This document shows positions 1-13,732 of a stretch of 64,000 nt of DNA, in pieces. Origin of the DNA: a virus. Every line of letters begins with the position of its first letter. The stretch's first letter is position 1. The notes under the pieces are model-generated. The model saw only the letters and a program-made list of their open reading frames with translations. It had not been told where the DNA came from and made no database searches. A program made the position numbers and the translations under genes. The stretch spans positions 2,631 through 66,630 of IMG/VR virus record IMGVR_UViG_3300028898_000325; one strand, written 5' to 3'.

Positions 1-2
1 CA

Positions 3-548
3 AAAGAGGCGATACAGGCCAGGATAAACGAAATAAACGAAAAGATCACCCCGGATGTATCCGATTGGATGCGGGAAGAATTGCTTTCCCGGAAATCAAA
101 GCTTTCAGGCGGCTTTGCCCTGCTTTACATTGGTGGGAAGACTGCCGGTGAGATAAAGGAATTAAAAGACCGCTGCGAAGATGCTGTTTTGGCTGTTCGC
201 TCTGCCATTGAGGCAGGATATTTGCCCGGATGTGGTAAAGCGTATCTTATGGCCTCAAAAAAATTGCCCGGAAAATCTATTTTGATCGAAGCGCTGCACT
301 CAATTACTCGGCAGGTTTGCTTTAACGGAGACATCAACGAAATACAAACCGGGGAAATCATTTTAAAAATGCTTTCATCTGGCGTTACTTTTGGCTACAA
401 CGCCCGAACCGATACAATGGAGGATTTATTTAAAGCCGGTGTTATTGATAGCGCAAAAGTTGTCATTTCAGCCCTTCAGAATGCCGTTTCCGCTGCCCTG
501 GCCTTTGTAAACACGGAATTTATCATTGCTCAGGAAAAGAAAGATTAA
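3..548 (+). CDS. groEL: Chaperonin GroEL-like protein, C-terminal part (5' truncated by window edge)
   Basis: The frame is open from nt 3: ARINEI..SDWMREELLSRKSKLSGGFALLYIGG...KDRCEDAVLAVRSAIEAGYLPGCG...GYNARTD..DLFKAGVIDSAKVVISALQNAVSAA. This follows the GroEL apical/equatorial motifs (KERxxDAxxAxxAAxxxGxxPGGG; GIIDPxKVxxxALxNAxS). Confidence 0.92.
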   Translation, partial: KEAIQARINEINEKITPDVSDWMREELLSRKSKLSGGFALLYIGGKTAGEIKELKDRCEDAVLAVRSAIEAGYLPGCGKAYLMASKKLPGKSILIEALHSITRQVCFNGDINEIQTGEIILKMLSSGVTFGYNARTDTMEDLFKAGVIDSAKVVISALQNAVSAALAFVNTEFIIAQEKKD

Positions 549-796
549 TCACCTTCCAGTATCCATGTATAGGATTTTTTGTACCGATCCTTCCATTTGT
601 GCAGGAAGTCAATGGTAACGCCGTATGTGGCAAGTTCCAGCGCTTTCAGGTGGGAAAGTTTAACATCCATGGATTCAGCAAATTCTTTTTGAGTAAGCCC
701 GGCTTGATGCCGGGTTTCTCTTAGTCTTTTGGCAATGCCTGGATCACCAACCTTTGGCTTTACAGGCTTTTTCTTTTTTGTTTTGCTGACGGACAT
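545..796 (-). CDS. XRE-family helix-turn-helix regulator
   Basis: IAKRLRETRHQAGLTQKEFAESMDVKLSHLKALE matches the HTH_3 pattern. Confidence 0.85.
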   Translation of the reverse strand: MSVSKTKKKKPVKPKVGDPGIAKRLRETRHQAGLTQKEFAESMDVKLSHLKALELATYGVTIDFLHKWKDRYKKSYTWILEGD

Positions 797-839
797 TTTT
801 TTAGTTTGTTAAGGAGCGGACGAAAATACAAAAAAAGGA

Positions 840-889
840 TTGAGTTGCGGCAATTGGGCGGAACTGCGGCAATACAAGAGTTAGCAGCA
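840..889 (+). other. Putative attI-like entry site of cassette array 1
   Basis: It ends in GA|GTTAGCAGCA (GTT at 880) and has no left hairpin arm. TTGAGTTGCGGCAATTGGG (840-858) is 17/19 identical to the reverse complement of 12531-12549. TGCGGCAAT occurs twice in direct orientation. Confidence 0.5.
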
Positions 890-1150
890 ATGCCTGACCA
901 ACACACAATCCTGCTTTGCTATATGCCGCCACATGGTTCGCTGCCCAGCATAGTCCTCCCACAATACATAGTCTTTAATGCCACCAGCATTATCAACGTC
1001 AAATTCTTCACCGATTAAGTTTCTATACCAACCCTGCTCGTATGAGCATTGGGTAATTCTGACCCGACAAGGAGCAGGCGGCAGGGCACTGCTGCTAACA
1101 TCGGTTTGCTGCAAGTCAGGCTGATTGTTTTCTAATGAACTGTTTTCCAT
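881..1150 (-). CDS. Hypothetical phage protein in cassette A (antisense to attC)
   Basis: 89-aa ORF. The stop TAA lies inside the core at 880-889 and the ATG lies inside the attC at 1090-1231. Confidence 0.65.
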   Translation of the reverse strand: MENSSLENNQPDLQQTDVSSSALPPAPCRVRITQCSYEQGWYRNLIGEEFDVDNAGGIKDYVLWEDYAGQRTMWRHIAKQDCVLVRHCC

Positions 1151-1231
1151 TTTGTAAACTTTAGTTTGTTATTAAATACTGTTGTGCTGCCAAGTCCTGC
1201 CCTGACAGCAAGCCGTCAACCGTTGTAGGCA
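1090..1231 (+). repeat. attC-like recombination site (array 1, #1)
   Basis: TGCTGCTAAC - GGTTTGCTGCAAGTCAGG ... CCTGACAGCAAGCC - GTTGTAGGCA. The arms are imperfect inverted repeats between AAC and GTT cores, with the longer spacer on the GTT side. Confidence 0.8.
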
Positions 1232-1278
1232 ATTTGGCAACCGTCTCCATAATCTAAACTTCACCTAAAAACTTTCGT

Positions 1279-2097
1279 ATGACACCAAAAACTCTTTTAA
1301 TTATGTTAATGGCACTTGTTTGCCAAAACGCATTTGCTCAAAATAAAAAATCAAATAAAGAAGCTCCTAACAAATTCGAGAACATTGATACCACTTCTTC
1401 ATCAAATCAAAAAGGAACTGAGGACATCAGTGAATATGGAGGAACACCAATAGTGACAAGAACAAGTAAATTTATTGAAATTTCTGAGGAAAAATCAGGT
1501 GAGGAAATTGCAAGTTTATATGATGAATGTGTGGTGATTATCAGTGGGTCATCCTCCACATTTTCCAGTCAAGGTAGCGGAGTAATAATATCTTCTGATG
1601 GTTATTTAATAACAAATTATCACGTGATAGCTGGAATGAACAATATAACCGCTTCCAATGCTATTATTAAAAATACTCCAGTCACAATTATATTTAAAGA
1701 CCAAACTAATGACATAGCACTTTGCAAACTTCCTAAATCAAATTATAAGACTGCTCAATTTTGGTTTGGTGATGCGCTTTTTAAGGGGTCGACAATATAT
1801 GCTATTGGAAGTCCATTAGGAACTCCAAATATGATTACAAAAGGAATTGTGTCCGGTAAGTATATCGAAGATGGTAAAGCATATATAGTTCATGACGCAG
1901 CCATGGGCAGCGGATCTAGCGGAGGAGCATTAATAAATGCAAAAGGTCTTCTTGTAGGCATCAATACAAAAGTGAAATTGCAACAAAAAGAAACTGTTGT
2001 TCAAAACTTCAATTATGCAATACCAATTCACGTAATTGAAAATATTCTTAAAGAAGCAGGTTATGAAAATGTTCTTAAAAATACTTCATCCAAATAA
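1279..2097 (+). CDS. Secreted trypsin-like serine protease (S1/HtrA-like catalytic domain, no PDZ), cassette B
   Basis: Signal peptide ending AFA|Q; GSGVIISSDGYLITNYHVI (His), NDIAL (Asp), GSSGGALIN (Ser). Confidence 0.9.
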   Translation: MTPKTLLIMLMALVCQNAFAQNKKSNKEAPNKFENIDTTSSSNQKGTEDISEYGGTPIVTRTSKFIEISEEKSGEEIASLYDECVVIISGSSSTFSSQGSGVIISSDGYLITNYHVIAGMNNITASNAIIKNTPVTIIFKDQTNDIALCKLPKSNYKTAQFWFGDALFKGSTIYAIGSPLGTPNMITKGIVSGKYIEDGKAYIVHDAAMGSGSSGGALINAKGLLVGINTKVKLQQKETVVQNFNYAIPIHVIENILKEAGYENVLKNTSSK

Positions 2098-2100
2098 AAC

Positions 2101-2303
2101 TGCCTACAACAAATGTATTACAGCAAGCGGGGCAGAAGTACAAATCATCAGCTGGAAACCGCTACTGTACTGCATTCACGCATGCAGTACAGCTATGGAA
2201 CATCGGTTGTAAACATCAAATTTTAAATCAATAATCGGCTGCAGTCCCACGCATGCGGAACATGAAAAATCCCGCCTGCTTTAATACTCGGTCGTTGGGC
2301 GCA
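2101..2303 (+). repeat. attC-like recombination site (array 1, #2; long)
   Basis: TGCCTACAAC - GTATTACAGCAAGCGGG ... CCCGCCTGCTTTAATAC - GTTGGGCGCA. It begins 3 nt after the protease stop codon. Confidence 0.8.
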
Positions 2304-2306
2304 ATA

Positions 2307-2747
2307 CTACGCTACCATTAATTCAGGATTTTCATATTTATTACCAATAACTTCTGTTTGATTCCACCATTCTATTGAGTATAATGAGCATTGGTCTTCT
2401 GACACTGTTGCATGGAAAGCGTAATCCTTCCAAACGACAACATTCCACCCTCCTTGCCAATTTTTTACAATATCTCCTTCCCATATTTCTTTACCATTTT
2501 TATCCTTCAACCCTGTATTTTGAAGGAAAATAGATTCATTCGGGAAAATGTCATATTTGTTTTCGTCTGGAACATACTGTGTTAACTCATTGTGTAACTC
2601 AAATGATTTCCCCATCTTTTTTAAAGACGGAATCCACGCCTTAAAATTTAATTTTCTTTTCATAATAAACGTACATGCGCCCAACATTTGCTTTGTGGCA
2701 ATAGTGGCAGAAGTGCCAGCTTCAACTTTTGATTTTCTATTTGACAT
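2307..2747 (-). CDS. YopX-like phage protein, cassette C (alternative start 2663)
   Basis: KLNFKAW...LQNTGLKDKNGKEIWEGDIVK...EVIGNKYENPEL is the YopX family signature. Confidence 0.88.
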   Translation of the reverse strand: MSNRKSKVEAGTSATIATKQMLGACTFIMKRKLNFKAWIPSLKKMGKSFELHNELTQYVPDENKYDIFPNESIFLQNTGLKDKNGKEIWEGDIVKNWQGGWNVVVWKDYAFHATVSEDQCSLYSIEWWNQTEVIGNKYENPELMVA

Positions 2748-2814
2748 AAGAATATATTTTGAACATTTGATTAATAAATTCCACTACTGCACAAAGCAGT
2801 TCAACGTTGGGCGT
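2676..2814 (+). repeat. attC-like recombination site (array 1, #3)
   Basis: TGCGCCCAAC - TGCTTTGTGGCAATAGTGG ... CCACTACTGCACAAAGCA - GTTGGGCGT. The left arm carries one extra base. Confidence 0.85.
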
Positions 2815-2856
2815 AAGCACTACCAGCATTTATTGCCAGTAGTGCTGCCCGACAAA

Positions 2857-3111
2857 TTAAGAACGTGGAGGCCAGTGCCAGGTTCTTGGCTCTTTAGTTT
2901 CGCTGTAAGGAACAGAAGTTGCCCATACATCTTTTTCACCATCAGCCAATACTTTTAAATTCACCTCATCGTTTTCGTATGAAGTGTTTTCCCACGTTCT
3001 TACAATAACAGCAGGTGACGTTTCGCCATTATTGTTTTCTTTTCTTGCATCTTCTGGCCACACGTAGATTACTACTCTACCAGAAGACGGCTTTACTTCG
3101 GACTTTGCCAT
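2857..3111 (-). CDS. Conserved-looking phage hypothetical protein, cassette D
   Basis: PSSGRVVIYV...PAVIVRTW...VNLKVLADG..W.TSV...WHWPPR resembles a small phage protein family recalled from memory; function unknown. Confidence 0.75.
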   Translation of the reverse strand: MAKSEVKPSSGRVVIYVWPEDARKENNNGETSPAVIVRTWENTSYENDEVNLKVLADGEKDVWATSVPYSETKEPRTWHWPPRS

Positions 3112-3172
3112 TTTATTTACGGTTTGACCAGAGCCGTTATGGTTTAATTTTCTATTAAATTACCCGTGCCTA

Positions 3173-3309
3173 ACGCCCAACAAACGGTTTGGCGGCAGTC
3201 GGGGGACAAGTGCAAATCCTCATCTTCGCTTATCTATCGGCTTCGGAAATATGGTCAGCAGCAGTTTTTCAAATACCGCCCGACCGCCAAGCCGAAACCG
3301 TTAGCGGCC
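3173..3309 (+). repeat. attC-like recombination site (array 1, #4)
   Basis: ACGCCCAAC (GCCCAAC fits RYYYAAC) - GGTTTGGCGGCAGTCGGG ... CCCGACCGCCAAGCC - GTTAGCGGCC. Confidence 0.85.
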
Positions 3310-3311
3310 AT

Positions 3312-3641
3312 TTAATATTTAAAGCGATCATACGCCTGTATATTTTTTTTCATTTTGGTTTCTACAAAAAACTTTGCCATGCTTTCCATCATTGCTTTCA
3401 GTTCTTCATTTATGTTCCCGTGGAAAATTACTTTGTTATCAAGCGGGTACCAGGTTGTTACTGCAATGTTGTATCCGGGCACTCTTTCTTCTGCCAGTGG
3501 CTTTATTTTTTCCATCTGCTGGTTAAGCAGCTGGGTATCTTTGTACATCCATACCCTGCATATCCATAAAGGAAAAACAGTGTGCAGGATGTAGGTCCCG
3601 TCTTCTATGTTTACGAAAACAAATTTTTCTACTTTAGGCAT
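3312..3641 (-). CDS. Hypothetical protein
   Basis: Likely start MPKVEKFVF (ORF is open to 3683); the stop is adjacent to the attC #4 core. Confidence 0.65.
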   Translation of the reverse strand: MPKVEKFVFVNIEDGTYILHTVFPLWICRVWMYKDTQLLNQQMEKIKPLAEERVPGYNIAVTTWYPLDNKVIFHGNINEELKAMMESMAKFFVETKMKKNIQAYDRFKY

Positions 3642-3867
3642 CTTGCTTTTTGATTTTAAACTGTATTTCCACACCGTAACCATTAACTATCTCTTCCAGT
3701 ATATCCAGGCTAATATTTCGGATTCCCCTTTCTATGTACGAAAGGTTTGAAGCAGCCTGACCGGTTTTTGCTGCAGCATCTTCTAAAGTTAAATTTTGCT
3801 TTTTCCGGAATGCTTTTAGTGCGGATCCAACTTGTGATTTTAAATCTTCTGTGGTTTTCTCTTTCAT
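3634..3867 (-). CDS. XRE-family helix-turn-helix regulator
   Basis: LKAFRKKQNLTLEDAAAKTGQAASNLSYIERGIRNISLDILEEI matches HTH_3. Confidence 0.88.
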   Translation of the reverse strand: MKEKTTEDLKSQVGSALKAFRKKQNLTLEDAAAKTGQAASNLSYIERGIRNISLDILEEIVNGYGVEIQFKIKKQDA

Positions 3868-3966
3868 TTTTGGGGAGTGTTGATGCACCGGAGCAGCCAT
3901 ATAGGATAACGCCCCGGTGGGTTGTGTTTAGTTAAGGGCAAAATTGCGGGTTTATACTTGCTTTTT

Positions 3967-4197
3967 TCACCCTACAAACATTTTTTTAAGTGCATATATC
4001 TGGGTCCATAATGTAGGGTGTTTTTGCCCATCAAAAAGGCTGTGACCTTCCAACGGGGTTTTCTGCAAATGAAATTCAACAGAGTTTAACGCCATGCTGG
4101 CGGTAAACAATAACTCCCCTATCTTTTCCCGTTTATCTTTGGGAAGTAGCTTTATATTTTGCAATAGTGCTGTGTCGGTGGTTTGTTGTGCTTTCAT
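3967..4197 (-). CDS. Hypothetical protein
   Basis: 76-aa ORF in a run of minus-strand genes. Confidence 0.55.
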   Translation of the reverse strand: MKAQQTTDTALLQNIKLLPKDKREKIGELLFTASMALNSVEFHLQKTPLEGHSLFDGQKHPTLWTQIYALKKMFVG

Positions 4198-4241
4198 GCT
4201 GCACCGCTATTTATTTAACCGGTTAGCGTTCCGGGGGTTGG

Positions 4242-4505
4242 TTAATATTTCATTGGTGATGTTAAAAGACTGTCTAACTGATCGGCGTCTAAATCCGGGT
4301 ATTCAATGTGCAAAATATCTATTTCGTAGCCGTCCGTTCCCGGTTCGCATTGGGTGTATGCCGCAACCGCTTCCGGTGCATCTGTTACCCCTTTGTACGG
4401 GCACAATTTCCAGCGGCAAGCGTGACCAGGATTTTTACACCCGGCGCAACACATGAGCAGGGCGGCAATTATTATGAGTAGTAAGTGGATGTTTTCTTTT
4501 TTCAT
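4242..4505 (-). CDS. Putative lipoprotein
   Basis: MKKENIHLLLIIIAALLMCCAGC: basic N-terminus, hydrophobic core and lipobox-like Cys. Confidence 0.55.
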   Translation of the reverse strand: MKKENIHLLLIIIAALLMCCAGCKNPGHACRWKLCPYKGVTDAPEAVAAYTQCEPGTDGYEIDILHIEYPDLDADQLDSLLTSPMKY

Positions 4506-4573
4506 TACATTAGGTTTATGTGTTAATTAAAAAGGGGTACGGATTAAAAACAAAGCGGGGTAATAGTTATTTT

Positions 4574-4753
4574 TTAATAATAAAAAAAACGAGCGGTTAA
4601 TTTATCGGCTGGCTCTAACTGGTGCTTACTCCTGTAGAACTCTTTCGCTTGTTTGCATGTTTTACTTTGATCTGTGCTACAGACATAACGTCCATTTATA
4701 AACAAGTCAATTTTATAGCATCCAGTAGAACTGTTATATTTTTTATTTTTCAT
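4574..4753 (-). CDS. Small hypothetical protein (59 aa, not in ORF track)
   Basis: Manual translation: MKNKKYNSSTGCYKIDLFINGRYVCSTDQSKTCKQAKEFYRSKHQLEPADKLTARFFYY. Confidence 0.55.
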   Translation of the reverse strand: MKNKKYNSSTGCYKIDLFINGRYVCSTDQSKTCKQAKEFYRSKHQLEPADKLTARFFYY

Positions 4754-4839
4754 TGTCTTAGCTTTTAGAAGGTTATTTTTTAGGCCGTATAATTTGCAGC
4801 CAGTAAGCGCCGGTGAATTTCATGGTGGGTAGGGTGGGG

Positions 4840-6900
4840 TTATGGTTTGTCTAATATTACAGTTACAGTACTTACTCCGGTCGGACGAAATACACTGGCG
4901 AAGCTTCCTGCTGGGTTCTCTTCAATTGTTCCGTAGCGCTCAACCATTTGTAAAAATTCCGGGCTTCTGTGTTTGTTGTTAGCCATTATTGCTACCAATC
5001 TGCCGCCGCCGTTCAATAATTGGAATGCGTGTTTTACATGTTCAACATCCTGCAGGTTTTCAAACGGCGGGTTCATAATTATTTTGTCGAACTTTAAAGA
5101 TTCAGTATCGTTAAGCATGTTTAAAAAATCGCCGTTTTGCACTAAATGCCCCTTTGCTTTTAGCGCTTCAAATAAAGAATGGTTAATTTCAACGCAAAGC
5201 AGCTCATTGCCGGGGTGATCTGCTTTTATTTGATCTGCGATGTGCCCAAGTCCGGCGGATGGTTCCAAAATGGTGTCGCCGGGTTGAATGTTTGCCAATT
5301 CAACTATCTGCGCTGCAAGTGTTTCGGGGGTAGGGAAAAAACCTGGTATTTTTGATCCTATAAATTTTCTTTCGAGCTCTTTTATTTGCAGGCTTCTTTT
5401 TTGCTCTTCGCTTAATCCTGTGCCTTTTTCAAGGTTAAGCAGCTCACGCAATGCAGCCCTTAATTCTTCAATTGTATCTATACCGATGCGCTGAAGTCTT
5501 TTCATGTGCATTAACTGTTCTTTATATCGGTCAATTTGCCAACTATCCACAACGCTACATCTCTGGCAAAATAGAGTTTCGTAGTCCTCTACCCTTTGCT
5601 GGCTGTTTATGAGTATATACTCGTAAGGTGCCAATCTTTTAAGCATGCGGGAAGCGGCTAGTTTTTTGCCGGGAACATCTTTCATTCTCTCAATCTCTCC
5701 TTTTCGGTTTGCATATAAAATAGGGTATGGTAATTCTGCAAAGTTCACCGTCTCTAAACTTGTTTGGTATTTGCTGCGGTCTAAATTCAAAGCGTTTATG
5801 TGCCGGTTTTTCGCCATACTCAAAATACTTTTAAGCTCTTCAAGGTCTCTGCTATTGCTTATTTTGTATAGATATTTTATTTCTTCAGTCTCCATCGCTT
5901 CGCCAATTTTTACAAGTGTTTTGCCAAAGCTTATTTGTGCCGCCGCCTTTCTTTCGGCGTTTTCAGCCATTGCGGCCCGGCGGTGGGTGTTGGTTTCTCT
6001 GTCCCTGTTAAGTTCCCGCTCTCCATCTTTAATGAGGTTTATCCCTTTTTCTTTTAATGCTTCAGCTCTTGTTTGTTGTTTTTGCTCGGCGGATTGTTGC
6101 TTCAGCTCGCTTGCGTCTACATTGCCGTTCTTTACTTGTGCAAATAGTTCTGCCGCTTCTTTGTTTTCAAACGTGAATCCGGGAATAGCGCCGTTGCCTT
6201 TAAAGCTGGAATAGTAGCCGCCTAATTTTTTGGCTCTATTGTTTAACTCTTCATAAACAGAGCGTTGAACCCTTGTATCGAGCACGACAACCCAAAGAGG
6301 TATTTGTTTTTTTGCATGGAAACTTTCTTTTATGTGCATTTCAGCACTTACGTTCTCAACAGATGCAACCTGTGCCTTTTGTTTTTCTTCTCTTTCTTTT
6401 ATGGCTCTTCTTAAATCTGCTGTTAATTCATCGTATTTTATCCGCTGTTCACTGGTTAGGGCCGCCTCCCCTTTACTAGCTATGAAGCTGCGAAACTCTT
6501 CAAGCGTTTCGGGGTTGTTCAGTGCCTTTTCTCTTTCCTCTCTTTTGGCTTGCAATTTTGCTTTATATGCGGCGTATGTCTCTGCGGTGTAAGAGTTTGT
6601 TATTCTCTTTAAAGCCTGCTGCCATGTTTCATCAAATGGGGAATAAGAAAAACTATCCCCCATCACGGCGCATTGCGCTATTGTAGAAAATACACTATCA
6701 ACCGCCTGTTTTTTATTGTCGGCTCTGTACGTGTATTTTTTAAGGGTTGCAACTGTTTCTTTCGCAATCAATCCTTTCAAAAAATCTTCTTCAGTCAAAA
6801 CAAACTCCTTAAATGTTTGCCAGTCTTCAAAAGAATGTCCGTTTGAATACAACGTCCTCGCTGTATTAAGTAGCTCCGTAAAATTGTTTGGCTTATTCAT
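4840..6900 (-). CDS. Large protein with C-terminal class I SAM-dependent (probable N6-adenine DNA) methyltransferase
   Basis: FFPTP..LAAQIV, ILEPSAGLG (motif I), IIMNPPF (motif IV); long helical N-terminal region. Confidence 0.85.
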   Translation of the reverse strand: MNKPNNFTELLNTARTLYSNGHSFEDWQTFKEFVLTEEDFLKGLIAKETVATLKKYTYRADNKKQAVDSVFSTIAQCAVMGDSFSYSPFDETWQQALKRITNSYTAETYAAYKAKLQAKREEREKALNNPETLEEFRSFIASKGEAALTSEQRIKYDELTADLRRAIKEREEKQKAQVASVENVSAEMHIKESFHAKKQIPLWVVVLDTRVQRSVYEELNNRAKKLGGYYSSFKGNGAIPGFTFENKEAAELFAQVKNGNVDASELKQQSAEQKQQTRAEALKEKGINLIKDGERELNRDRETNTHRRAAMAENAERKAAAQISFGKTLVKIGEAMETEEIKYLYKISNSRDLEELKSILSMAKNRHINALNLDRSKYQTSLETVNFAELPYPILYANRKGEIERMKDVPGKKLAASRMLKRLAPYEYILINSQQRVEDYETLFCQRCSVVDSWQIDRYKEQLMHMKRLQRIGIDTIEELRAALRELLNLEKGTGLSEEQKRSLQIKELERKFIGSKIPGFFPTPETLAAQIVELANIQPGDTILEPSAGLGHIADQIKADHPGNELLCVEINHSLFEALKAKGHLVQNGDFLNMLNDTESLKFDKIIMNPPFENLQDVEHVKHAFQLLNGGGRLVAIMANNKHRSPEFLQMVERYGTIEENPAGSFASVFRPTGVSTVTVILDKP

Positions 6901-6953
6901 ATTTATTCGCCTTTCGCCTGTTGGCCCGGCGGCTGTGCCGGTGGTTTATTTGA

Positions 6954-7214
6954 TTAACAATTAAAATTTAAAGAATACTGAGAAAAGCTATTTTTCATCA
7001 CATCCGCAATGGCATATATACCTGAAGCCTTAGCCGGTGGCAATTGTCCGGTAAGTTGTCGTGCTATCTCTTGCCTCAGCATGATATTGTTCGCACCGCT
7101 TAAATACTGGGCGCAATGAAAATCAAAGCATTGGGGGCTATTCATGTAACTATTTTTTAGTGCATTAATTACATCCGTTGCCCGTGTGGTTAGTGTTACT
7201 TTGTTGTTTTGCAT
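6954..7214 (-). CDS. Hypothetical protein
   Basis: 86-aa ORF that shares a leader repeat with the methyltransferase gene. Confidence 0.6.
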   Translation of the reverse strand: MQNNKVTLTTRATDVINALKNSYMNSPQCFDFHCAQYLSGANNIMLRQEIARQLTGQLPPAKASGIYAIADVMKNSFSQYSLNFNC

Positions 7215-7265
7215 AATATATTCGCCCTTTCGCTATTGCCCGGCAGGCTGAACCGGTTGTTATGG

Positions 7266-7421
7266 TTAATTGAATGGGTTTTTGCTTTTAGAATTAAAAA
7301 CCATTGCCCACGCTTTTGCGTACATTTCAGCAGCCTTGCCAACTGGCACTTTTACATGGGGAAAGCCGGCTTTGCAAGCCATTTTATAAACTTTCTTATC
7401 AAATTTGTTTGCGGTGGTCAT
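7266..7421 (-). CDS. Small hypothetical protein (51 aa, not in ORF track)
   Basis: Manual translation MTTANKFDKKVYKMACKAGFPHVKVPVGKAAEMYAKAWAMVFNSKSKNPFN; it fills a gap in the minus-strand run. Confidence 0.45.
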   Translation of the reverse strand: MTTANKFDKKVYKMACKAGFPHVKVPVGKAAEMYAKAWAMVFNSKSKNPFN

Positions 7422-7441
7422 ACTGCAGTGTTTTGTTGTCA

Positions 7442-7558
7442 TCAATCAATTAGCGTATAAAAAGGAAACAACCGGTAAAACTTCTCAGTAGCTTTTGCCT
7501 CGTTAACCTCAGTTATTGTAACGGTCCCGGCGGTAGTATTGAAAATGAATGTTTGCAT
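7442..7558 (-). CDS. Small hypothetical protein (38 aa, not in ORF track)
   Basis: Manual translation MQTFIFNTTAGTVTITEVNEAKATEKFYRLFPFYTLID; tightly packed between its neighbours. Confidence 0.4.
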   Translation of the reverse strand: MQTFIFNTTAGTVTITEVNEAKATEKFYRLFPFYTLID

Positions 7559-7568
7559 GACCTATATA

Positions 7569-7772
7569 TTAATTTACCTTAATACTGTTCTCTTCGTTTA
7601 AAAATGAAACTACCTCTGAAATTTCATCCATATATCTGCCCTTCTCGCCACCTTCCATTGAAGTACGAACAAGTTGCAACCCGTTGTCCTGTTCTATACT
7701 GTCAATTATCCAAACTATACCGGATGTAGTTTGGAACTTAGAACCTTGAAGTATGTCGTTAACTGTTATCAT
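7569..7772 (-). CDS. Hypothetical protein (first gene after a TAACTTTG promoter)
   Basis: ATG 7772 is preferred over GTG 7793 because the -7 box overlaps the latter. Confidence 0.55.
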   Translation of the reverse strand: MITVNDILQGSKFQTTSGIVWIIDSIEQDNGLQLVRTSMEGGEKGRYMDEISEVVSFLNEENSIKVN

Positions 7773-7795
7773 TGTTTCATCGTTTGTTGACACAA

Positions 7796-7812
7796 AGTTA
7801 TGCTATATAACT
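7796..7812. promoter_or_regulatory. 17-bp palindromic operator-like motif overlapping a minus-strand TAACTTTG -7 box
   Basis: AGTTATGCTATATAACT; TAACTTTG on the minus strand at 7793-7800. Confidence 0.55.
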
Positions 7813-7964
7813 ATATAAACAAGCAAAAAGTATCAAATTTGATAAATTTAGTAGCTGTTCAATAAAATGCCTATATTTTATAACATTTGATAAAATTTAA
7901 ACGTAAAATTGAATAAAATTGAAAATATTTTAGTCTCGCAAATTCCCGGCAAAACACTTTTGAA

Positions 7965-7981
7965 GGTTATAAAGCATAACC
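7965..7981. promoter_or_regulatory. 17-bp palindromic operator-like motif
   Basis: GGTTATAAAGCATAACC; its reverse complement matches the 18673 copy at 15/17. Confidence 0.45.
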
Positions 7982-8126
7982 ATGCAAATAAACATGAGAG
8001 AGAACACCGGCGCCGGCACCAGCCGCAACACCACCAAACAGTGAAAAAAGTAAAAATGAAGCCTCCGAGAATTGAATAGAGAAAAACAAATTGCGCTATT
8101 GTACAGGATAAGCCAGGCTTACAGCC

Positions 8127-8510
8127 TTATTCAGCAGCATTCGGCAGGCCCGGCAGACCACGGGCCGCCAGCTTGTGCAATATCTTTTCGTAACGAGAGA
8201 GTAACAGACGACCGGACGTGGTGATGACCAGCGGTGAACGCTGACTACCACGAGCCAAATAGCCACGTTTGAGCAAACCCTGAACAAGATCATTTACAAA
8301 ACCAAAGGAACGAGTATTCCTACAAGCCTTTAATATCTTCCCTACTTTATCGTAAGTCACAGCAACCCCATGAGCATTGCAATAAACAACATACACCAAC
8401 GCAATTAAATCAACCCTCCTAACCTCCCAACCTTCCATAGATGATAACACAGAAAGGGCAGAGCCTTCATTCAACGTTGAACAAACCAACGGAAAATCAG
8501 CTAACACCAT
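8127..8510 (-). CDS. Hypothetical protein, possible winged-helix DNA-binding protein
   Basis: YDKVGKIL...VNDLVQGLLKRGYLARG...LVITTSGRLLL resembles MarR-like wHTH; the start codon is uncertain (ORF open to 8639). Confidence 0.4.
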   Translation of the reverse strand: MVLADFPLVCSTLNEGSALSVLSSMEGWEVRRVDLIALVYVVYCNAHGVAVTYDKVGKILKACRNTRSFGFVNDLVQGLLKRGYLARGSQRSPLVITTSGRLLLSRYEKILHKLAARGLPGLPNAAE

Positions 8511-9032
8511 TACAGACGAACGCAATTGTAATTTATCGCCCAAAATTAAACAGAGTTTGTACTCAATTGAGTGATTTATGAAGGGGTTAATTGCACATTT
8601 GCAGACACATTGGCGCATTAGATCCTGACATAACGGCACAATGTGTTATAACATTATGAAAATCAGTATGAATGCAAGGCGCAAAAGCAACGCCCACAAT
8701 ATTAATTATGTTAAATAGGCCATTTTTCACCCCAAATATACACCTTATCTTTCCATTTGAACGCTGCGAGAATTGAATATTTACCCTCAACCCCTCCCCT
8801 ACCCTACCGGATGTGCTGCAAATTGGTTTATTTTCCGTGATAACCATGCGAATTGCTTTGAAATTTCCAGATTCCCCTTTTCCCGCCGACCATAAAAAAG
8901 ACCCCACCCGGTCGCAAAATTCCCGTTTCCCCAGGCAAAACGACCCCGGCTTTATAAGGTATTATCCCTCCATTCCATCCACACGTCCTATTTTAACAGG
9001 CTGTGAATGGATGTGGCGGTTAATTTTTGGGT

Positions 9033-9320
9033 TTAGTATTTGAGTGTTAATACTTTTACCACATTCATTTGGGCGTTGAGGATTTCGCCTATGGTGTGGT
9101 GGTAAAGTATTGTGGCATGCTGTGATAGTGCTTTTTGTTGGGTTACTTCTCTTTCCTGTATTTCATCATGCAGGAGGTCTGCAAGTTCTGCGCAAAGTTT
9201 TTTTGCCTTGGTTACTTTGTCATCGTTTGATGGGTTGAAGGTTAATCCTACGAGTTTTTCCCCGAAAGTCATTGGTCTTTGTGGGGCTACATCTACTGGG
9301 CTTGATTGTGTTGTACTCAT
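9033..9320 (-). CDS. Small helical phage protein, possibly Acb2/Tad1-hairpin-like
   Basis: TFGEKLVGLTFNPSND...AKKLCAELADL...IGEILNAQMNVVKVLT; family resemblance recalled from memory, not searched. Confidence 0.45.
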   Translation of the reverse strand: MSTTQSSPVDVAPQRPMTFGEKLVGLTFNPSNDDKVTKAKKLCAELADLLHDEIQEREVTQQKALSQHATILYHHTIGEILNAQMNVVKVLTLKY

Positions 9321-9548
9321 AATATTGTCGGTTTTACCGGAGCCGATACGGTTTATTTTGATTGATCGCTTGTTTTGTTTACTTCTTATCGCTTTCTTTG
9401 TTATCGTTGGGATTTGGGGAGGTGTGTGGCTTGTTTGAGTTCCTCTTCTGTGTTCCCGTAGAGCGATTTAAAGACTACGGTTTTCTGTTGTTTTTCCATT
9501 GTGTGTTTGTTTATGGTTGCGAAGGATCACCCTTTGAGTATTCTTTGA

Positions 9549-9761
9549 TTATTTGGTTGGGCATGAGGGTAGTTTTATTTTTTTAAGCAGCATTGACATT
9601 AGGTAATCATATATACTGAAAACTTGTTTAAACTTGTCTACGCCTGAAAATATCCAGTATACCCCAGCCAGTACAAGCAGTACAGAATAGAGAGAGGTTA
9701 TTAGAAACGCCGCTGGCATCCAGGGTATTATTTTAATAAAAAAAACGAGTCTGTTTGTCAT
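9549..9761 (-). CDS. Small membrane protein
   Basis: Long hydrophobic stretch; ATGA overlap with the upstream gene. Confidence 0.5.
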   Translation of the reverse strand: MTNRLVFFIKIIPWMPAAFLITSLYSVLLVLAGVYWIFSGVDKFKQVFSIYDYLMSMLLKKIKLPSCPTK

Positions 9762-10033
9762 AGTTTTGTTTCGTTGTTTGTGGAGGGGTTTTGTTTTGAC
9801 TGAAGGAACATTTGATATGCCCCATCGGATGTGACATACTTCATATCGAGACCTATCCATGTACCATTGGAAGCGGACTGAAAATCTAACTTGTGATTGC
9901 TCATGAAGTTTGCAAACTCAATCGCCTCCCGCCGGCACAGTTCCTCTATCTGCTTTGTAAAGTCCGCTTCGTCTTCTCTTGTGAGGTATTGGTATTTGTC
10001 AATCTTTTGAACTAATTCGTAGGCTTTACTCAT
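9758..10033 (-). CDS. Hypothetical protein
   Basis: 91 aa; shares EAIEF and Y..FLQ.KQ motifs with its neighbour. Confidence 0.65.
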   Translation of the reverse strand: MSKAYELVQKIDKYQYLTREDEADFTKQIEELCRREAIEFANFMSNHKLDFQSASNGTWIGLDMKYVTSDGAYQMFLQSKQNPSTNNETKL

Positions 10034-10296
10034 TGCTGCTGTTTTTGCTGCAAGAAAATTTGATAATACTGTTCCATTGATTCATAGGTGCCGTGACTAT
10101 CTACAAATACACCAAGCGAAACCTCCAGCATTCTACCTGTAGCAAATTCAAGGAACTCAATCGCCTCCTGCTTGGCGTACTCGTCCATAGCCTTTTCTAT
10201 TTCTTCGATTTGGCTATTAGGGTCGCCACCCCAACTGTAGCATTCCGTACTATCCCATCCGCTGTCTTCAAGTATTTCTTCTTTTGTTTTTGTCAT
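10030..10296 (-). CDS. Hypothetical protein
   Basis: 88 aa; MTKTKEEIL...KAMDEYAKQEAIEF. Confidence 0.65.
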   Translation of the reverse strand: MTKTKEEILEDSGWDSTECYSWGGDPNSQIEEIEKAMDEYAKQEAIEFLEFATGRMLEVSLGVFVDSHGTYESMEQYYQIFLQQKQQQ

Positions 10297-10406
10297 GCCT
10301 CAGAGTTTTTTCTTAACAAAAACCAAAGATAGGAAAAAATATTTGGTTATGTGGCATAACTTTATGTTATTTGTGGTTATATTGTATGACTTTAAAAAAC
10401 GAAAGA

Positions 10407-10655
10407 ATGAAAACATTTATTTCTGTTGCGCTTGTGCTCGCCATGTGCTTGTACGTTTCCCGGATGAACATTCAGGCAAAGCCATTCAAAGTGTCATTCG
10501 GAGATCTCCCAGCGGGGCTCGGTGTATTGTTTATTGTCCTGGCGGTTATTTGCTTTCAGCTATCAGGATATAAACGAGGGGTGAAAGATGGATATAGTGA
10601 AGCCGTTGACGATGTTATTGAACTTTCAAAAGAGAAAAAGCAGCCTGCAGAATAG
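10407..10655 (+). CDS. Membrane protein
   Basis: Two hydrophobic segments followed by GYKRGVKDGY. Confidence 0.6.
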   Translation: MKTFISVALVLAMCLYVSRMNIQAKPFKVSFGDLPAGLGVLFIVLAVICFQLSGYKRGVKDGYSEAVDDVIELSKEKKQPAE

Positions 10656-10696
10656 CGTCTCCCTCCCCTGCCTTCATGGGGTGAAAGTATGGGGGA

Positions 10697-10827
10697 GGTA
10701 ACGGCTCCGGGTGTTTGCGAAGGGATGGAATAGTAGCACTTCCGCCCAACAACAACAAATGCCCGGCTTTGCAAATGGTTGAGAACTTATTCGTCAGCCA
10801 GCCTTTTGCAAATACCAATGTTCTATG
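10697..10827 (-). repeat. attC-like recombination site (array 2, distal)
   Basis: On the + strand: GGTAAC - GGTGTTTGCGAAGGGATGG ... CCAGCCTTTTGCAAATACC - GTTCTATG; the arms are 15/19 complementary. Spacer asymmetry indicates minus orientation. Confidence 0.75.
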
Positions 10828-10877
10828 TCTGTATTTTGCGAAGCTGCGGAGCTTTACTAACAATTTAAAAAGAGGTT

Positions 10878-11156
10878 ATGACAACAGAAAATGCTTTAGA
10901 CTTAGTAAAAATGTATGCTCAACCTGCTAAATCTTCTTTTGGCGGCGAACTGGATTATAATATAATTCCTTCAAAGCAATTCTATCATTTAGCAAATGAA
11001 ATTGCTGAAAAGGTAAACATGTGGCAAGATCAGGCCATTACGCTGCATAAGATTATTTATAAAATGATGAATGAAGAAATACCTACTTATGATATGAAGG
11101 AAGGGGAGGTAATTAAAAGTATTGTTGCTGAAATTGTAAATAACACAAAAAAATAA
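10878..11156 (+). CDS. Hypothetical protein (cassette E, gene 1)
   Basis: 92-aa ORF between paired cores at 10820 and 11571. Confidence 0.6.
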   Translation: MTTENALDLVKMYAQPAKSSFGGELDYNIIPSKQFYHLANEIAEKVNMWQDQAITLHKIIYKMMNEEIPTYDMKEGEVIKSIVAEIVNNTKK

Positions 11157-11161
11157 ATTTT

Positions 11162-11575
11162 ATGGTAGATAAGAAAAAACTTGCCGAAATATTTAACCTT
11201 CCAGTGAGTGAAGTTGAAACAATTTTTGAAGCTGCATTGGTTTATCAATGTGATGCACAAAATGAAGGGTATAGAGATTGGTGTAAAATGTATGATGGCA
11301 TTCATAGGGAAATGCACGGGGAAACAGCAATAAGAAACTGGCTTGCATTTAGAAGATGGCAAAAATCAAGGGCACAGCCTTCTATTAAAGAGTTTATGAA
11401 TCTCGCAAATGAGTTGAGTAATACATCTACGGATAAACAATTTAGATATGTTCTTACTCATTCACAACTTATAAAGCTGTATGAATTTGCGCAAGCTGGT
11501 GCTATTAATGCTGAAATTCAAACGTCCAGCCCATTAAAGAACGAAAAGTGTGGCAAGGGGCAAAATATAGCATAG
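11162..11575 (+). CDS. Hypothetical protein (cassette E, gene 2)
   Basis: 137 aa; the stop TAG lies inside the core CATAGAAC. Confidence 0.65.
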   Translation: MVDKKKLAEIFNLPVSEVETIFEAALVYQCDAQNEGYRDWCKMYDGIHREMHGETAIRNWLAFRRWQKSRAQPSIKEFMNLANELSNTSTDKQFRYVLTHSQLIKLYEFAQAGAINAEIQTSSPLKNEKCGKGQNIA

Positions 11576-11683
11576 AACGTGCCGGGTGCTTACGAAGGCG
11601 GGATATTGACTTGAGGCAGTTTGGCTTTGCGATTGTTCCGGCTTTGTTCCTTCGCCCCGCTTTTGTAAGCACCATGTTATGTA
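11571..11683 (-). repeat. attC-like recombination site (array 2, middle)
   Basis: CATAGAAC - GGTGCTTACGAAGGCGGG ... CCCGCTTTTGTAAGCACC - GTTATGTA; the arms are 16/18 complementary. Confidence 0.85.
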
Positions 11684-11785
11684 TCAGTAGGGCAATGACT
11701 GTTCCTGCTGCTGAATAGAATTACTGAAGAAAAAATGCGGGGACGGCTGAAGTCACAGCCACTCCGAAACACTAAAAACAAAAGC

Positions 11786-12169
11786 ATGAAAATTTATACT
11801 GCAAGCAAAACGAAACACGCTCACAAATGGATTGAGCTAAGAAATAACGGCGTGAATGTTATTTCAACTTGGATTGATGAAGCAGGGCAAGGGCAAACAA
11901 AAGACATGGCTGATTTGTGCCGCCGTTGCATTCAGGAAAGTATTGACTGTGATGCAATGATTGTGTATGCAGAAGAAGGCGACTATTTGAAGGGTGCATT
12001 TATTGAAATGGGCATTGCTCTTAGCGTTCCCTCTAAGCCGATTGTGTTGGTTGGCGAAGTGCTGCCTTTCGGTTCAGCATTCACGTATGCGCCACAAGTT
12101 TTCAGGGCTAAAACAATAGAGGCGGCTTTGGAACTGTTAGAAACTTCCAAAACGCCGGTCACGGCGTAG
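11786..12169 (+). CDS. Nucleoside 2-deoxyribosyltransferase-like (NDT-fold) protein, cassette F
   Basis: MKIYTAS...ISTWID...CIQESIDCDAMIVY...KGAFIEMGIAL..KPIVLVG follows the NDT pattern (xIYLAG ... D ... GxxxExGxA). Confidence 0.7.
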   Translation: MKIYTASKTKHAHKWIELRNNGVNVISTWIDEAGQGQTKDMADLCRRCIQESIDCDAMIVYAEEGDYLKGAFIEMGIALSVPSKPIVLVGEVLPFGSAFTYAPQVFRAKTIEAALELLETSKTPVTA

Positions 12170-12226
12170 GGAAGCGTGGGGCATTTTTTCTAAACTGAAG
12201 TTCGGTTATGTTCAAAAGCCCTATTG

Positions 12227-12365
12227 TACATAACGTCGAGAGGCTTTGTGCCTGTTGCCGAATTTGAAATTATTCACTCTAAAATTTATACAAATGTCCA
12301 AAAGTAAAAAGAAAGTTGAGCCGACTTCCCAAAGCGGCAATAGCACAAAACCTGTGTTATATGCC
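12227..12365 (-). repeat. attC-like recombination site (array 2, proximal)
   Basis: TACATAAC - GGCTTTGTGCCTGTTGCCG ... CGGCAATAGCACAAAACC - GTTATATGCC; one extra base in one arm. Confidence 0.85.
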
Positions 12366-12527
12366 GTTGGCGATTTGGTGAAAATCATTGCTAATGTTGA
12401 TTATGTAGGTTCAGTTGGTCGGGTGATTGATTTAAACGAACCTGGCCCTCATCCGATAAAGGTTCAATTTGAGGACACTTGGTGTTGTTATGCAGCCGAT
12501 GAGATATGTCACGCCAATGGCATATAA
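12294..12527 (+). CDS. Hypothetical protein, possible SH3/KOW-like fold (cassette G)
   Basis: AVGDLVKII...GSVGRVID...PIKVQFED. The ATG lies inside the attC and the stop TAA lies inside the core GGCATATAAC. Confidence 0.6.
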   Translation: MSKSKKKVEPTSQSGNSTKPVLYAVGDLVKIIANVDYVGSVGRVIDLNEPGPHPIKVQFEDTWCCYAADEICHANGI

Positions 12528-12549
12528 CTCCCCAATTGTCACAACTCAA
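12519..12549 (-). other. Putative attI-like entry site of cassette array 2
   Basis: Minus strand TTGAGTTGTGACAATTGGGGA|GTTATATGCC; no hairpin arm; matches 840-858 at 17/19. Confidence 0.5.
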
Positions 12550-12554
12550 CACAA

Positions 12555-12824
12555 ATGATTGAACCCCAATATTATCACCAAATTAAAAAAGGCTCTACGG
12601 TAACTCTGTGGAATGGCAGTTACCGTGTGCAAGAGGATAGAGGGCATTTGTATGTTGTGATGAAAGTAAATGGGCAACGTAAAAAGAAAACAATCACACC
12701 AGAATTATTCCCGGAACCAGGCAGTTTGCAGGATTTTATTTTTCATCAATGGTTTCAGGATTATACCGAGCAGGAATTTTATTCATTCGCTTCAGCCGAA
12801 TTAAGCTGGCTGGGGATAAATTAA
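12555..12824 (+). CDS. Hypothetical protein
   Basis: 89-aa ORF in a + strand run. Confidence 0.6.
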   Translation: MIEPQYYHQIKKGSTVTLWNGSYRVQEDRGHLYVVMKVNGQRKKKTITPELFPEPGSLQDFIFHQWFQDYTEQEFYSFASAELSWLGIN

Positions 12825-12829
12825 AATAT

Positions 12830-13054
12830 ATGAGTATGGAAAAGAAAAATGAAGGGCAAATTGTCACTTGTACGTGTATGGTATGCGGCCAAAAGTTTAA
12901 AGGTGAAGAGCCGCAAATGTGTTGTGACGGAAGGGGTTGCGGATGTATGGGAAAGCCGATAGATCCAGTTGTGTGTTCTACTGAATGCTTCTATAAATTA
13001 ATGCTTTGTCAAGTCCCTTCACCCCATTCACTCACAACCCCGAAGAGGGGATAA
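12830..13054 (+). CDS. Small Cys-rich protein
   Basis: CTCMVC, CCDGRGCGC and CSTEC clusters. Confidence 0.55.
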   Translation: MSMEKKNEGQIVTCTCMVCGQKFKGEEPQMCCDGRGCGCMGKPIDPVVCSTECFYKLMLCQVPSPHSLTTPKRG

Positions 13055-13067
13055 AAAAGAAAGTATC

Positions 13068-13460
13068 ATGTTTACACAAGGATTAAGTTATCAAAAAACA
13101 ATTTCAATGGTTACAGAGGTATGCTGTAACTGCGGTATAGCTTTTGGTATGCCGTCCGATTTTAGAGACGTATTGCTCAATGACTCGAACAAGTCGTTTT
13201 ATTGTCCTAATGGTCATGGTCAGCATTTTGTAAAAAGTCGTGAACAGCAATTAAGGGAAGATGCAGAAAAAAAGTTACGTCAAAAGGAAAACGAACTTGC
13301 GAACTTAACAGCATCGAAAATTCAGTTAGAAAGCGAACTACAAAAAACGCAAAGAAAATTAAAGCGGGTCCATAACGGCACGTGCCCATGCTGTAAAAGA
13401 AGTTTTCAAAACCTGGCTAATCACATGAAATCTAAGCATCCTGAACTATTAACCAAGTAA
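13068..13460 (+). CDS. Zinc-finger/coiled-coil protein
   Basis: CCNCG..FYCPNGH, a coiled coil, then CPCCKRSF.NL.NHM...H (C2H2-like). Confidence 0.75.
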   Translation: MFTQGLSYQKTISMVTEVCCNCGIAFGMPSDFRDVLLNDSNKSFYCPNGHGQHFVKSREQQLREDAEKKLRQKENELANLTASKIQLESELQKTQRKLKRVHNGTCPCCKRSFQNLANHMKSKHPELLTK

Positions 13461-13465
13461 CCCCC

Positions 13466-13732
13466 ATGTACAACCTATCAACCGATTACGAAGAACTCTG
13501 GAGCTATGTTATCAAAGGCCATGAGCCGGTGTGCTTTGTGGATTCAATTTTATTCAATGAAAGAAAATCATCACGTGCAGTTGCAATGATAAAAAGGCAT
13601 TCTGAAAAAGACATTGATATTGGTGTAAGAGGCAGAAGCTATGGAGGTGTTACTCCATTTGACACCGCCCCCGAAAAAGAATTATTCATCTCCGAATGCA
13701 AGCGGCTTAACCTGCAATGGGTGAGGCCGTGA
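13466..13732 (+). CDS. Hypothetical protein
   Basis: 88-aa ORF, tightly packed. Confidence 0.6.
   Translation: MYNLSTDYEELWSYVIKGHEPVCFVDSILFNERKSSRAVAMIKRHSEKDIDIGVRGRSYGGVTPFDTAPEKELFISECKRLNLQWVRP

Follow-up and report, generated by a model that had tools for sequence, protein, structure and literature searches.

Can a phage genome carry genes in discrete units that are delimited, and perhaps moved, in the manner of integron cassettes? The question is raised by positions 10697-12549 of the window analysed here, a stretch of 64,000 nucleotides (nt) that corresponds to bases 2631-66630 of one 71,442-base IMG/VR provirus record (IMGVR_UViG_3300028898_000325) with an estimated completeness of ~71%. 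An initial annotation had described this locus (array 2) as a second cassette array, inverted relative to array 1 at 840-3309. Our analysis indicates that array 2 very probably consists of three mobile gene cassettes of the integron type, carried by a temperate Bacteroidota phage. This reading is supported by homologous arrays in bacteria, by strand polarity, by a cassette shared with another contig and by shuffled controls. We use 'integron-like' as the apt label, because the locus departs from an integron in the strict sense with respect to the integrase IntI and the details of canonical attC sites.

Three imperfect intergenic hairpins, each of roughly 105-130 nt, lie on the + strand at 10697-10827, 11571-11683 and 12227-12365, as had been annotated. 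They share a common plan when read 5' to 3' along the + strand: the first core, which has AAC as its last three letters, is followed by an invariant G and 5-6 unpaired nt, then by an arm, a loop and the second arm, and finally by 1-2 nt, an invariant T and the second core, which begins with GTT. The arms comprise ~18-19 base pairs (bp), with a gap of 6-7 nt from AAC to the arm and of 2-3 nt from the arm to GTT. Every GTT core matches, as a perfect reverse complement, the AAC core that closes the following gene block, and not the core of its own hairpin. The perfect cross-cassette pairing claimed previously was thus reproduced, with 8 bp between GTTCTATG at 10820 and CATAGAAC at 11571, 8 bp between GTTATGTA at 11676 and TACATAAC at 12227, and 10 bp between GTTATATGCC at 12356 and GGCATATAAC at 12519. 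The stop codons of two open reading frames (ORFs), the TAG of 11162-11575 and the TAA of 12294-12527, also fall inside AAC cores, in agreement with the initial annotation. The outer AAC core of hairpin 1, the terminal site, has no partner. The + strand folds more stably than its complement at all three sites, with z-scores of -1.16 vs. -0.90 at site 1, -3.34 vs. -1.10 at site 2 and -3.02 vs. -1.75 at site 3. No T-run follows the stems, and a search of Rfam with window positions 1-13500 gave zero matches at E <= 1.

The array closes with a site that lacks arms. This attI-like end, at 12519-12549 on the + strand, consists of the AAC core (12519-12528), the dinucleotide TC and a 19-nt motif, and no hairpin comes after it. 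The motif is identical in 17 of 19 positions to that at 858-840 on the - strand, where array 1 ends, giving two copies against 0.10 expected. Two hits of the same motif in viral contigs were dismissed as chance matches, as they lie inside coding regions of unrelated GC-rich phages.

Since bare 8-bp GTT/AAC inverted pairs are not rare (68 observed vs. 58.5 expected), they prove nothing on their own, and their significance taken alone was rejected. The picture differs once the hairpin architecture is required. A scan of the whole 71-kb record for further paired cores then yields 7 sites and 6 chained core pairs, whereas 200 dinucleotide shuffles gave a mean of 0.285 sites (maximum 3) and zero chained core pairs, so that the earlier argument against chance holds. 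The arms also covary: 13 pairs are altered on both sides, compared with 6.8 +/- 1.6 in shuffles, and none of 500 shuffles reaches 13.

The same family of sites is present in chromosomes of Bacteroidota. Searching viral and genome contigs with a 17-nt arm motif gave ~130 hits, almost all of them chance, and one true homologue of site 1 (locus L053, on contig C13 of G001), in a 4.4-Mb metagenome-assembled genome (MAG) labelled Bacteroidetes bacterium OH_CBlB_28. A covariance model, R1, was then built from six phage sites and the L053 site. With filters off, the R1 search lost sites with long loops (~200 nt), and site c of array 1 was missed by the model; the site counts given below are therefore lower bounds. 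R1 detects at least 12 sites in the OH_CBlB_28 MAG, mostly at contig ends. One locus of this genome (L166, contig C35) carries a gene for a 370-residue tyrosine recombinase, then an armless site, and then cassettes with hairpins up to the contig break, bounded by perfect core pairs of 10, 9 and ~9 bp. At the end of C35 (L166:11600-11749), the closing core of the third cassette reads AAT instead of AAC and is followed by unrelated, GC-richer sequence to the contig end; the site may have been interrupted by an insertion or may have decayed.

Relatives of the L166 recombinase were found at 59 loci in species-representative genomes, almost all of Chitinophagaceae, including the genera Lacibacter, Ferruginibacter, Terrimonas, Flavisolibacter and Niastella. 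When 58 of these loci were searched with R1, 56 of the 60 hits lay 3' of the recombinase gene and on the strand opposite to it, and 38 of 44 refined bacterial sites have a perfect partner core of 9-10 bp. The last partner core of an array is followed by a conserved armless sequence, with AAC, roughly AC-N-TAAAT-W-TA-Y-G and a second motif ~45 nt further, located ~100-300 nt past the recombinase gene. Read on the gene strand (e.g. L166:6940-7005 of G001, GTGGCGCATAA-TTTAGT-GTTGTCAGCAA), this armless site may resemble an 11-6-11 core site of the Xer/dif type. At one recombinase locus in a Lacibacter MAG, an ORF for a small nuclease of GIY-YIG type occupies positions 6500-6763 of L208, within the stretch expected to hold the cassette recombinase gene, and the recombinase match there is distributed over more sequence than usual (6001-7395).

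Sites and recombinase also tend to occur in the same genomes. R1 sites are present in at least 96 of 151 Chitinophagaceae genomes, compared with at least 38 of 151 genomes in a sample of the whole phylum, and the recombinase in 63 of the 151 Chitinophagaceae genomes. Both are found in 57 of the latter, the recombinase only in 6, sites only in 39 and neither in 49, corresponding to an odds ratio of ~12 that is uncorrected for phylogeny.

The bacterial arrays further define the polarity of the sites. In 38 of 39 bacterial cassettes, the longest ORF lies opposite the better-folding strand and is co-oriented with the recombinase. The strand antisense to the bacterial genes is the more stable one in 39 of 53 sites (Wilcoxon p = 2e-4), and the core-adjacent G and T, which are able to form a G.T pair on the folding strand only, are found in 51 of 53. 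Taken together, gene orientation, fold stability and G.T apposition imply that the folding strand corresponds to the 'bottom' strand of integrons. The phage genes are read on this folding strand in both arrays, + in array 2 and - in array 1, the two arrays being mirrored in step with local transcription as previously noted. Because the bacterial genes stand on the non-folding strand, the phage genes have an antisense orientation relative to the canonical polarity, which bears out what the initial annotation had proposed, with the protease gene of array 1 as the one exception. The opposite assignment, with the gene-sense strand as the 'top' strand, had been suggested by the longer spacer on the AAC side, and is ruled out by the bacterial gene orientation and by the cassette boundaries described next.

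Evidence for an exchanged unit comes from L230, an otherwise unrelated phage contig of another Joint Genome Institute (JGI) metagenome, which encodes both proteins of cassette E letter for letter as well as RecT, a YopX-like gene and an N6/N4 methyltransferase. BLAST of L230 against the window returns one common block only, 10707-11580, with 99.4% identity. The left boundary of the block falls just past the AAC of hairpin 1, and its right boundary coincides with the AAC (plus GT) of hairpin 2. Judging from these boundaries, the block would be the unit expected if the + strand were cleaved at AA|C and each hairpin formed part of the cassette 3' of it on that strand. Our assignment of hairpins to cassettes is drawn from the L230 block and from the bacterial arrays. 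A separate array is also present in L230, where five sites lie on the gene-sense strand and the cores pair over 10 bp. Moreover, cassette E recurs at ~99.5% identity with different hairpins on both sides in contigs of three further studies (viral, wastewater and riverine metagenomes).

A further observation concerns how cassettes E and F begin and end outside their hairpins. Their outermost stretches, 30-90 nt at the start and 50-70 nt at the end, namely 10811-10891 and 11521-11577 in E and 11672-11759 and 12166-12237 in F, are very high-copy in metagenome contigs (depth 300-700 vs. 18-64 in the interior) and are joined there to different interiors. In one metagenome contig, 525 other letters replace 406 within cassette F. 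These patterns could reflect conserved modules at the cassette ends, divergent alleles or internal exchange.

Judged by its sequence, the recombinase beside the bacterial arrays is Xer-like and cannot be classed as a canonical integron integrase. Among NCBIfam models, it fits best to XerA, with 203 bits (cut-off 220), and to the IntI model TIGR02249, with 181 bits (cut-off 265). A profile made from 13 members of the family can be aligned to archaeal XerA structures over its entire length, while its alignment to Vibrio IntI4 (2a3v) splits, placing 24 profile positions opposite 64 IntI4 residues; for a single family protein, 11 residues stand opposite 56. The IntI-specific insertion of ~40 residues is thus missing. 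Pfam recognizes SAM_4 and a catalytic domain without interruption, ~90 additional residues are present at the N terminus, and a C-terminal tail of the SPLD type is common to the family and IntI4. Canonical IntI, defined as TIGR02249 above its cut-off, was detected in one of the 151 Chitinophagaceae genomes. In the literature, recombinases without the C-terminal domain of IntI have been found beside attC sites and were judged not to be IntI in an IntegronFinder survey (PMC4889954), and a survey of tyrosine recombinases states that the IntI insertion 'is not fully conserved' in an integron-like subgroup (PMC8138268).

The only recombinase in the phage record is an unrelated prophage integrase, ~2.3 kb beyond array 1. 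Therefore, the phage arrays are orphan and comparable to clusters of attC sites lacking integrases (CALIN). The integrase was rejected as the cassette enzyme because it belongs to a different family, with 22% identity. Other phage contigs do carry the cassette recombinase. In L248 and L257, an array of sites detected by the model and an armless core come just before the gene for a small member of the family, which is encoded on the same strand, and in L247 a single site lies upstream of such a gene.

We propose that array 2 would operate as follows. The + strand, as the folding or 'bottom' strand, would be extruded as single-stranded DNA. A recombinase of the family, provided in trans by the host chromosome or by another phage, would cleave AA|C in the stem formed by two cores, and thereby exchange cassettes between the hairpin sites and the armless attI-like site at 12519-12549. 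Such exchange could allow the phage to swap early accessory genes. The cleavage position, the strand and the trans-acting enzyme are those that we infer.

Several observations weigh against the proposal of a mobile array. Some relatives (L232, L233 and run X7) share cassette E only from within the 3' arm of hairpin 1 (10795-10815), and not from the AAC core. Either homologous exchange within arms also occurs, or those hairpins have diverged. The expectation that cassettes vary as discrete units is borne out for cassette E with its hairpin in L230, where the block is cut at the AAC cores. Neither an excision circle nor an empty site was seen. The likeness of the phage armless site to bacterial attI is modest, consisting of a partial resemblance with a block C.CAACTC at equal offset from AAC, and no recombinase lies beside either phage armless site. 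With the recombinase-family profile, the search of the ~71% complete record finds nothing but the prophage integrase, although the incompleteness of the record leaves room for a cassette recombinase elsewhere in the phage. Finally, the ties to Chitinophagaceae as possible hosts consist of site homology and two distant structural-protein matches.

Could the array instead be an ordinary CALIN, with canonical attC sites taken from a classical integron and served by a true IntI? The cassette logic is the same, and clusters of attC sites without an integrase have been published for 17 phages, including a Polaribacter phage; IntI1, known to accept diverse attC sites, recombined five of the six sites tested (Qi et al. 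2023, PMC9892861). Nevertheless, we regard this origin as improbable. IntI is present in a single Chitinophagaceae genome of the 151, as opposed to sites in 96, and the recombinase that does accompany the arrays, with a score of 181 bits, falls short of the cut-off of 265 and is devoid of the IntI insertion. The cores depart from RYYYAAC/GTTRRRY beyond AAC/GTT, the spacers are of 6-7 vs. 2-3 nt, and almost no integrons are known in Bacteroidetes from IntegronFinder surveys, which report only In0 elements and a single complete integron (PMC9024848).

If no site-specific enzyme is involved at all, the hairpins might be conserved intergenic linkers, such as terminators or regulatory stem-loops comparable to the promoter-stem-loop modules of T4-type phages, and would be shuffled by homologous recombination. 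The breakpoints within the arm at 10795-10815 and the high-copy cassette ends that are joined to other interiors beyond the hairpin fit this explanation, as does the location of the phage hairpins on the sense strand, where they would fold in mRNA. However, homologous exchange leaves the unique 8-10-bp pairing of cores across cassettes unexplained, the L230 block is cut at the AAC cores, and the sites consistently lie beside a tyrosine recombinase gene with a conserved armless site. The better-folding strand is antisense to the bacterial genes, moreover, and the stems lack a T-run. We consider the linker explanation very improbable. Least credible to us is that the sites are repetitive extragenic palindromic (REP) or miniature inverted-repeat transposable element (MITE)-like repeats moved by an HUH transposase (of the REP-associated tyrosine transposase (RAYT) or IS200 type), or that they arose by chance. 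The scattering of sites over many chromosomal places in some genomes is reminiscent of such repeats, and a RAYT-like gene with its own REP repeats is situated ~0.5 kb from the site in L053. Yet that gene is flanked by a different repeat, no HUH gene stands beside the arrays, and chained core complementarity and attI-type ends are not features of REP, while chance is excluded by the shuffles. The RAYT/IS200-like HUH transposase gene itself lies at L053:600-1400, within ~100-nt direct repeats that contain small palindromes and are unlike the hairpin sites.

The integron-like reading can also be delimited by comparison with known systems. Array 2 resembles integrons and CALIN in that cassettes of one or few genes each possess a folding, imperfect-hairpin site bounded by an AAC-ending inverse core and a GTT-starting core. 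AAC/GTT is conserved at the crossover, and the core at a cassette start is complementary to the inverse core at its end (8, 8 and 10 bp here, and 9-10 bp in array 1). Cassettes move as discrete, core-cut units in the case of the L230 block, and an armless, attI-like site stands at one array end, next to which the bacterial arrays have a tyrosine recombinase gene. CALIN are defined by two or more successive attC sites with no integrase nearby, and such sites, albeit non-canonical, number three here and four in array 1.

The differences from integrons lie in the enzyme, the site details and the gene polarity. An integrase with the IntI-specific domain was found neither in the phage nor beside the homologous bacterial arrays; the associated recombinase is Xer-like, without the IntI insertion (the I2 helix region) and below the NCBIfam cut-off for IntI. 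The 8-10-bp cores GTTCTATG, GTTATGTA and GTTATATGCC do not fit RRRY, unlike those of canonical attC. Canonical attC sites have a near-symmetric unpaired spacer and L boxes whose extrahelical bases all lie on one side; here, the internal loop is asymmetric (6-7 vs. 2-3 nt) with a conserved G.T apposition, and the side of the bulge is variable, being in the 5' arm in site 3 and in the 3' arm in its homologue, site b of array 1. In the bacterial arrays, recombinase and cassette genes point in the same direction. Phage cassette genes are on the folding strand. REP/RAYT systems, which combine palindromic repeats with an HUH Y1 transposase, differ in that no such gene accompanies the arrays.

Filamentous phages of the CTX type offer another comparison. 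Their folded single-strand attP(+) is recombined by the host XerCD, as in other integrative mobile elements exploiting Xer (IMEX). Similarly, a Xer-type recombinase would here act on a stem with an imperfect centre, formed from one folded DNA strand. CTX, however, integrates the whole phage genome at the chromosomal dif, while the present system has gene-sized cassettes with their own hairpins, a dedicated recombinase and an armless site. The pdif modules of Acinetobacter plasmids are likewise gene-sized, flanked by XerC/XerD sites and thought to move by Xer-type recombination. They are distinguished by 28-bp double-stranded XerC-spacer-XerD sites in alternating orientation, in place of 100-200-nt hairpins with cassette-specific cores. 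In the literature that was searched, we found no description of this combined family of sites and recombinases.

On balance, we favour a broader picture in which Bacteroidota and their phages share an integron-like gene-capture system. Its Xer-like recombinase would act on folded single-strand hairpins without the I2 domain of IntI, representing an independent or ancestral solution of the attC type. The phages would employ the reverse gene polarity and several attI-like platforms to swap early genes, and the prophage would be an orphan carrier in need of a recombinase from the host or a co-infecting phage. Recombination of folded attC sites is thought to need the extra domain of IntI. If the enzyme works in the way we suppose, that domain would be dispensable for recombination at hairpin sites, or the family would have another solution, with a bearing on the origin of integron integrases from Xer-like enzymes. 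As about two thirds of the sampled Chitinophagaceae genomes contain sites, a large pool of mobile cassettes may escape the current integron finders. The system would provide a site-specific route by which early genes pass from one phage to an unrelated one or between a phage and its host, and cassette E, present in two phage backbones, records one such exchange.

The individual features of array 2, all on the + strand, are as follows. Hairpin site 1 (10697-10829) has its outer AAC core at 10704-10706, arms of ~19 bp and its GTT core at 10820, and scores 94.8 bits with the covariance model. Together with two ORFs of unknown function, 10878-11156 (92 residues) and 11162-11575 (137 residues), it makes up cassette E at 10706-11577, whose limits are those predicted for AA|C cleavage on the + strand. 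The cassette E proteins have no match in Pfam or PHROG and gave no usable lead in the protein atlas, and the 137-residue protein has no relatives in viral contigs. Hairpin site 2 (11571-11685, 76.1 bits) possesses 18-bp arms with two G.T pairs on the + strand; it contributes the AAC core CATAGAAC, the partner of the GTT core at 10820, and has a GTT core of its own at 11676. Cassette F (11578-12233), with the core pair GTTATGTA/TACATAAC, combines hairpin 2 with ORF 11786-12169 of 127 residues. Feature hits of 0.93-0.96 to Nuc_deoxyrib_tr families in the atlas provide a lead, and only a lead, to a nucleoside 2-deoxyribosyltransferase-like protein, for which Pfam gives no hit.

Hairpin site 3 (12227-12365, 104.6 bits) is homologous to site b of array 1. 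With ORF 12294-12527 (77 residues, function unknown), it constitutes cassette G at 12234-12527, bounded by the 10-bp pair GTTATATGCC/GGCATATAAC; nothing in Pfam or PHROGs matches the protein. The ATG of this ORF lies within the loop of hairpin 3. We considered that loops might donate leader peptides to a neighbouring cassette, but rejected the idea because the polarity puts each such ORF and the hairpin in which it starts within one cassette. Past the array, an ORF of 89 residues without a match (12555-12824, +) begins 6 nt beyond the armless motif and holds the slot in which L248 and L257 carry the small cassette recombinase gene.

Array 1, at 840-3309, contains four hairpin sites and four cassettes, folds on the - strand and has core pairs of 10, 10, 10 and 9 bp. 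Its cassettes include YopX, for which we read the downstream ATG at 2661 as the family-typical start, and one trypsin-like serine protease gene (1279-2097, +; Trypsin_2, 2.7e-26), the sole cassette gene of both arrays in the bacterial orientation. Searches with the protease returned only the window's own contigs and generic Do/HtrA proteases, the nearest relative besides its own copies being 38% identical.

Array 2 sits in the early region of the phage, where transcription runs on the + strand. The remaining genes are phage-like and include YopX, an SF1 helicase and a 686-residue DNA methyltransferase-like protein, for which a search of viral contigs gave distant relatives only; the large structural genes have no Pfam matches. 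The left end of the record holds the prophage integrase, of 386 residues and SAM_5 type. Genes for GroES- and GroEL-like chaperonins come directly after it, at window positions 3-548 and record bases 1359-3178.

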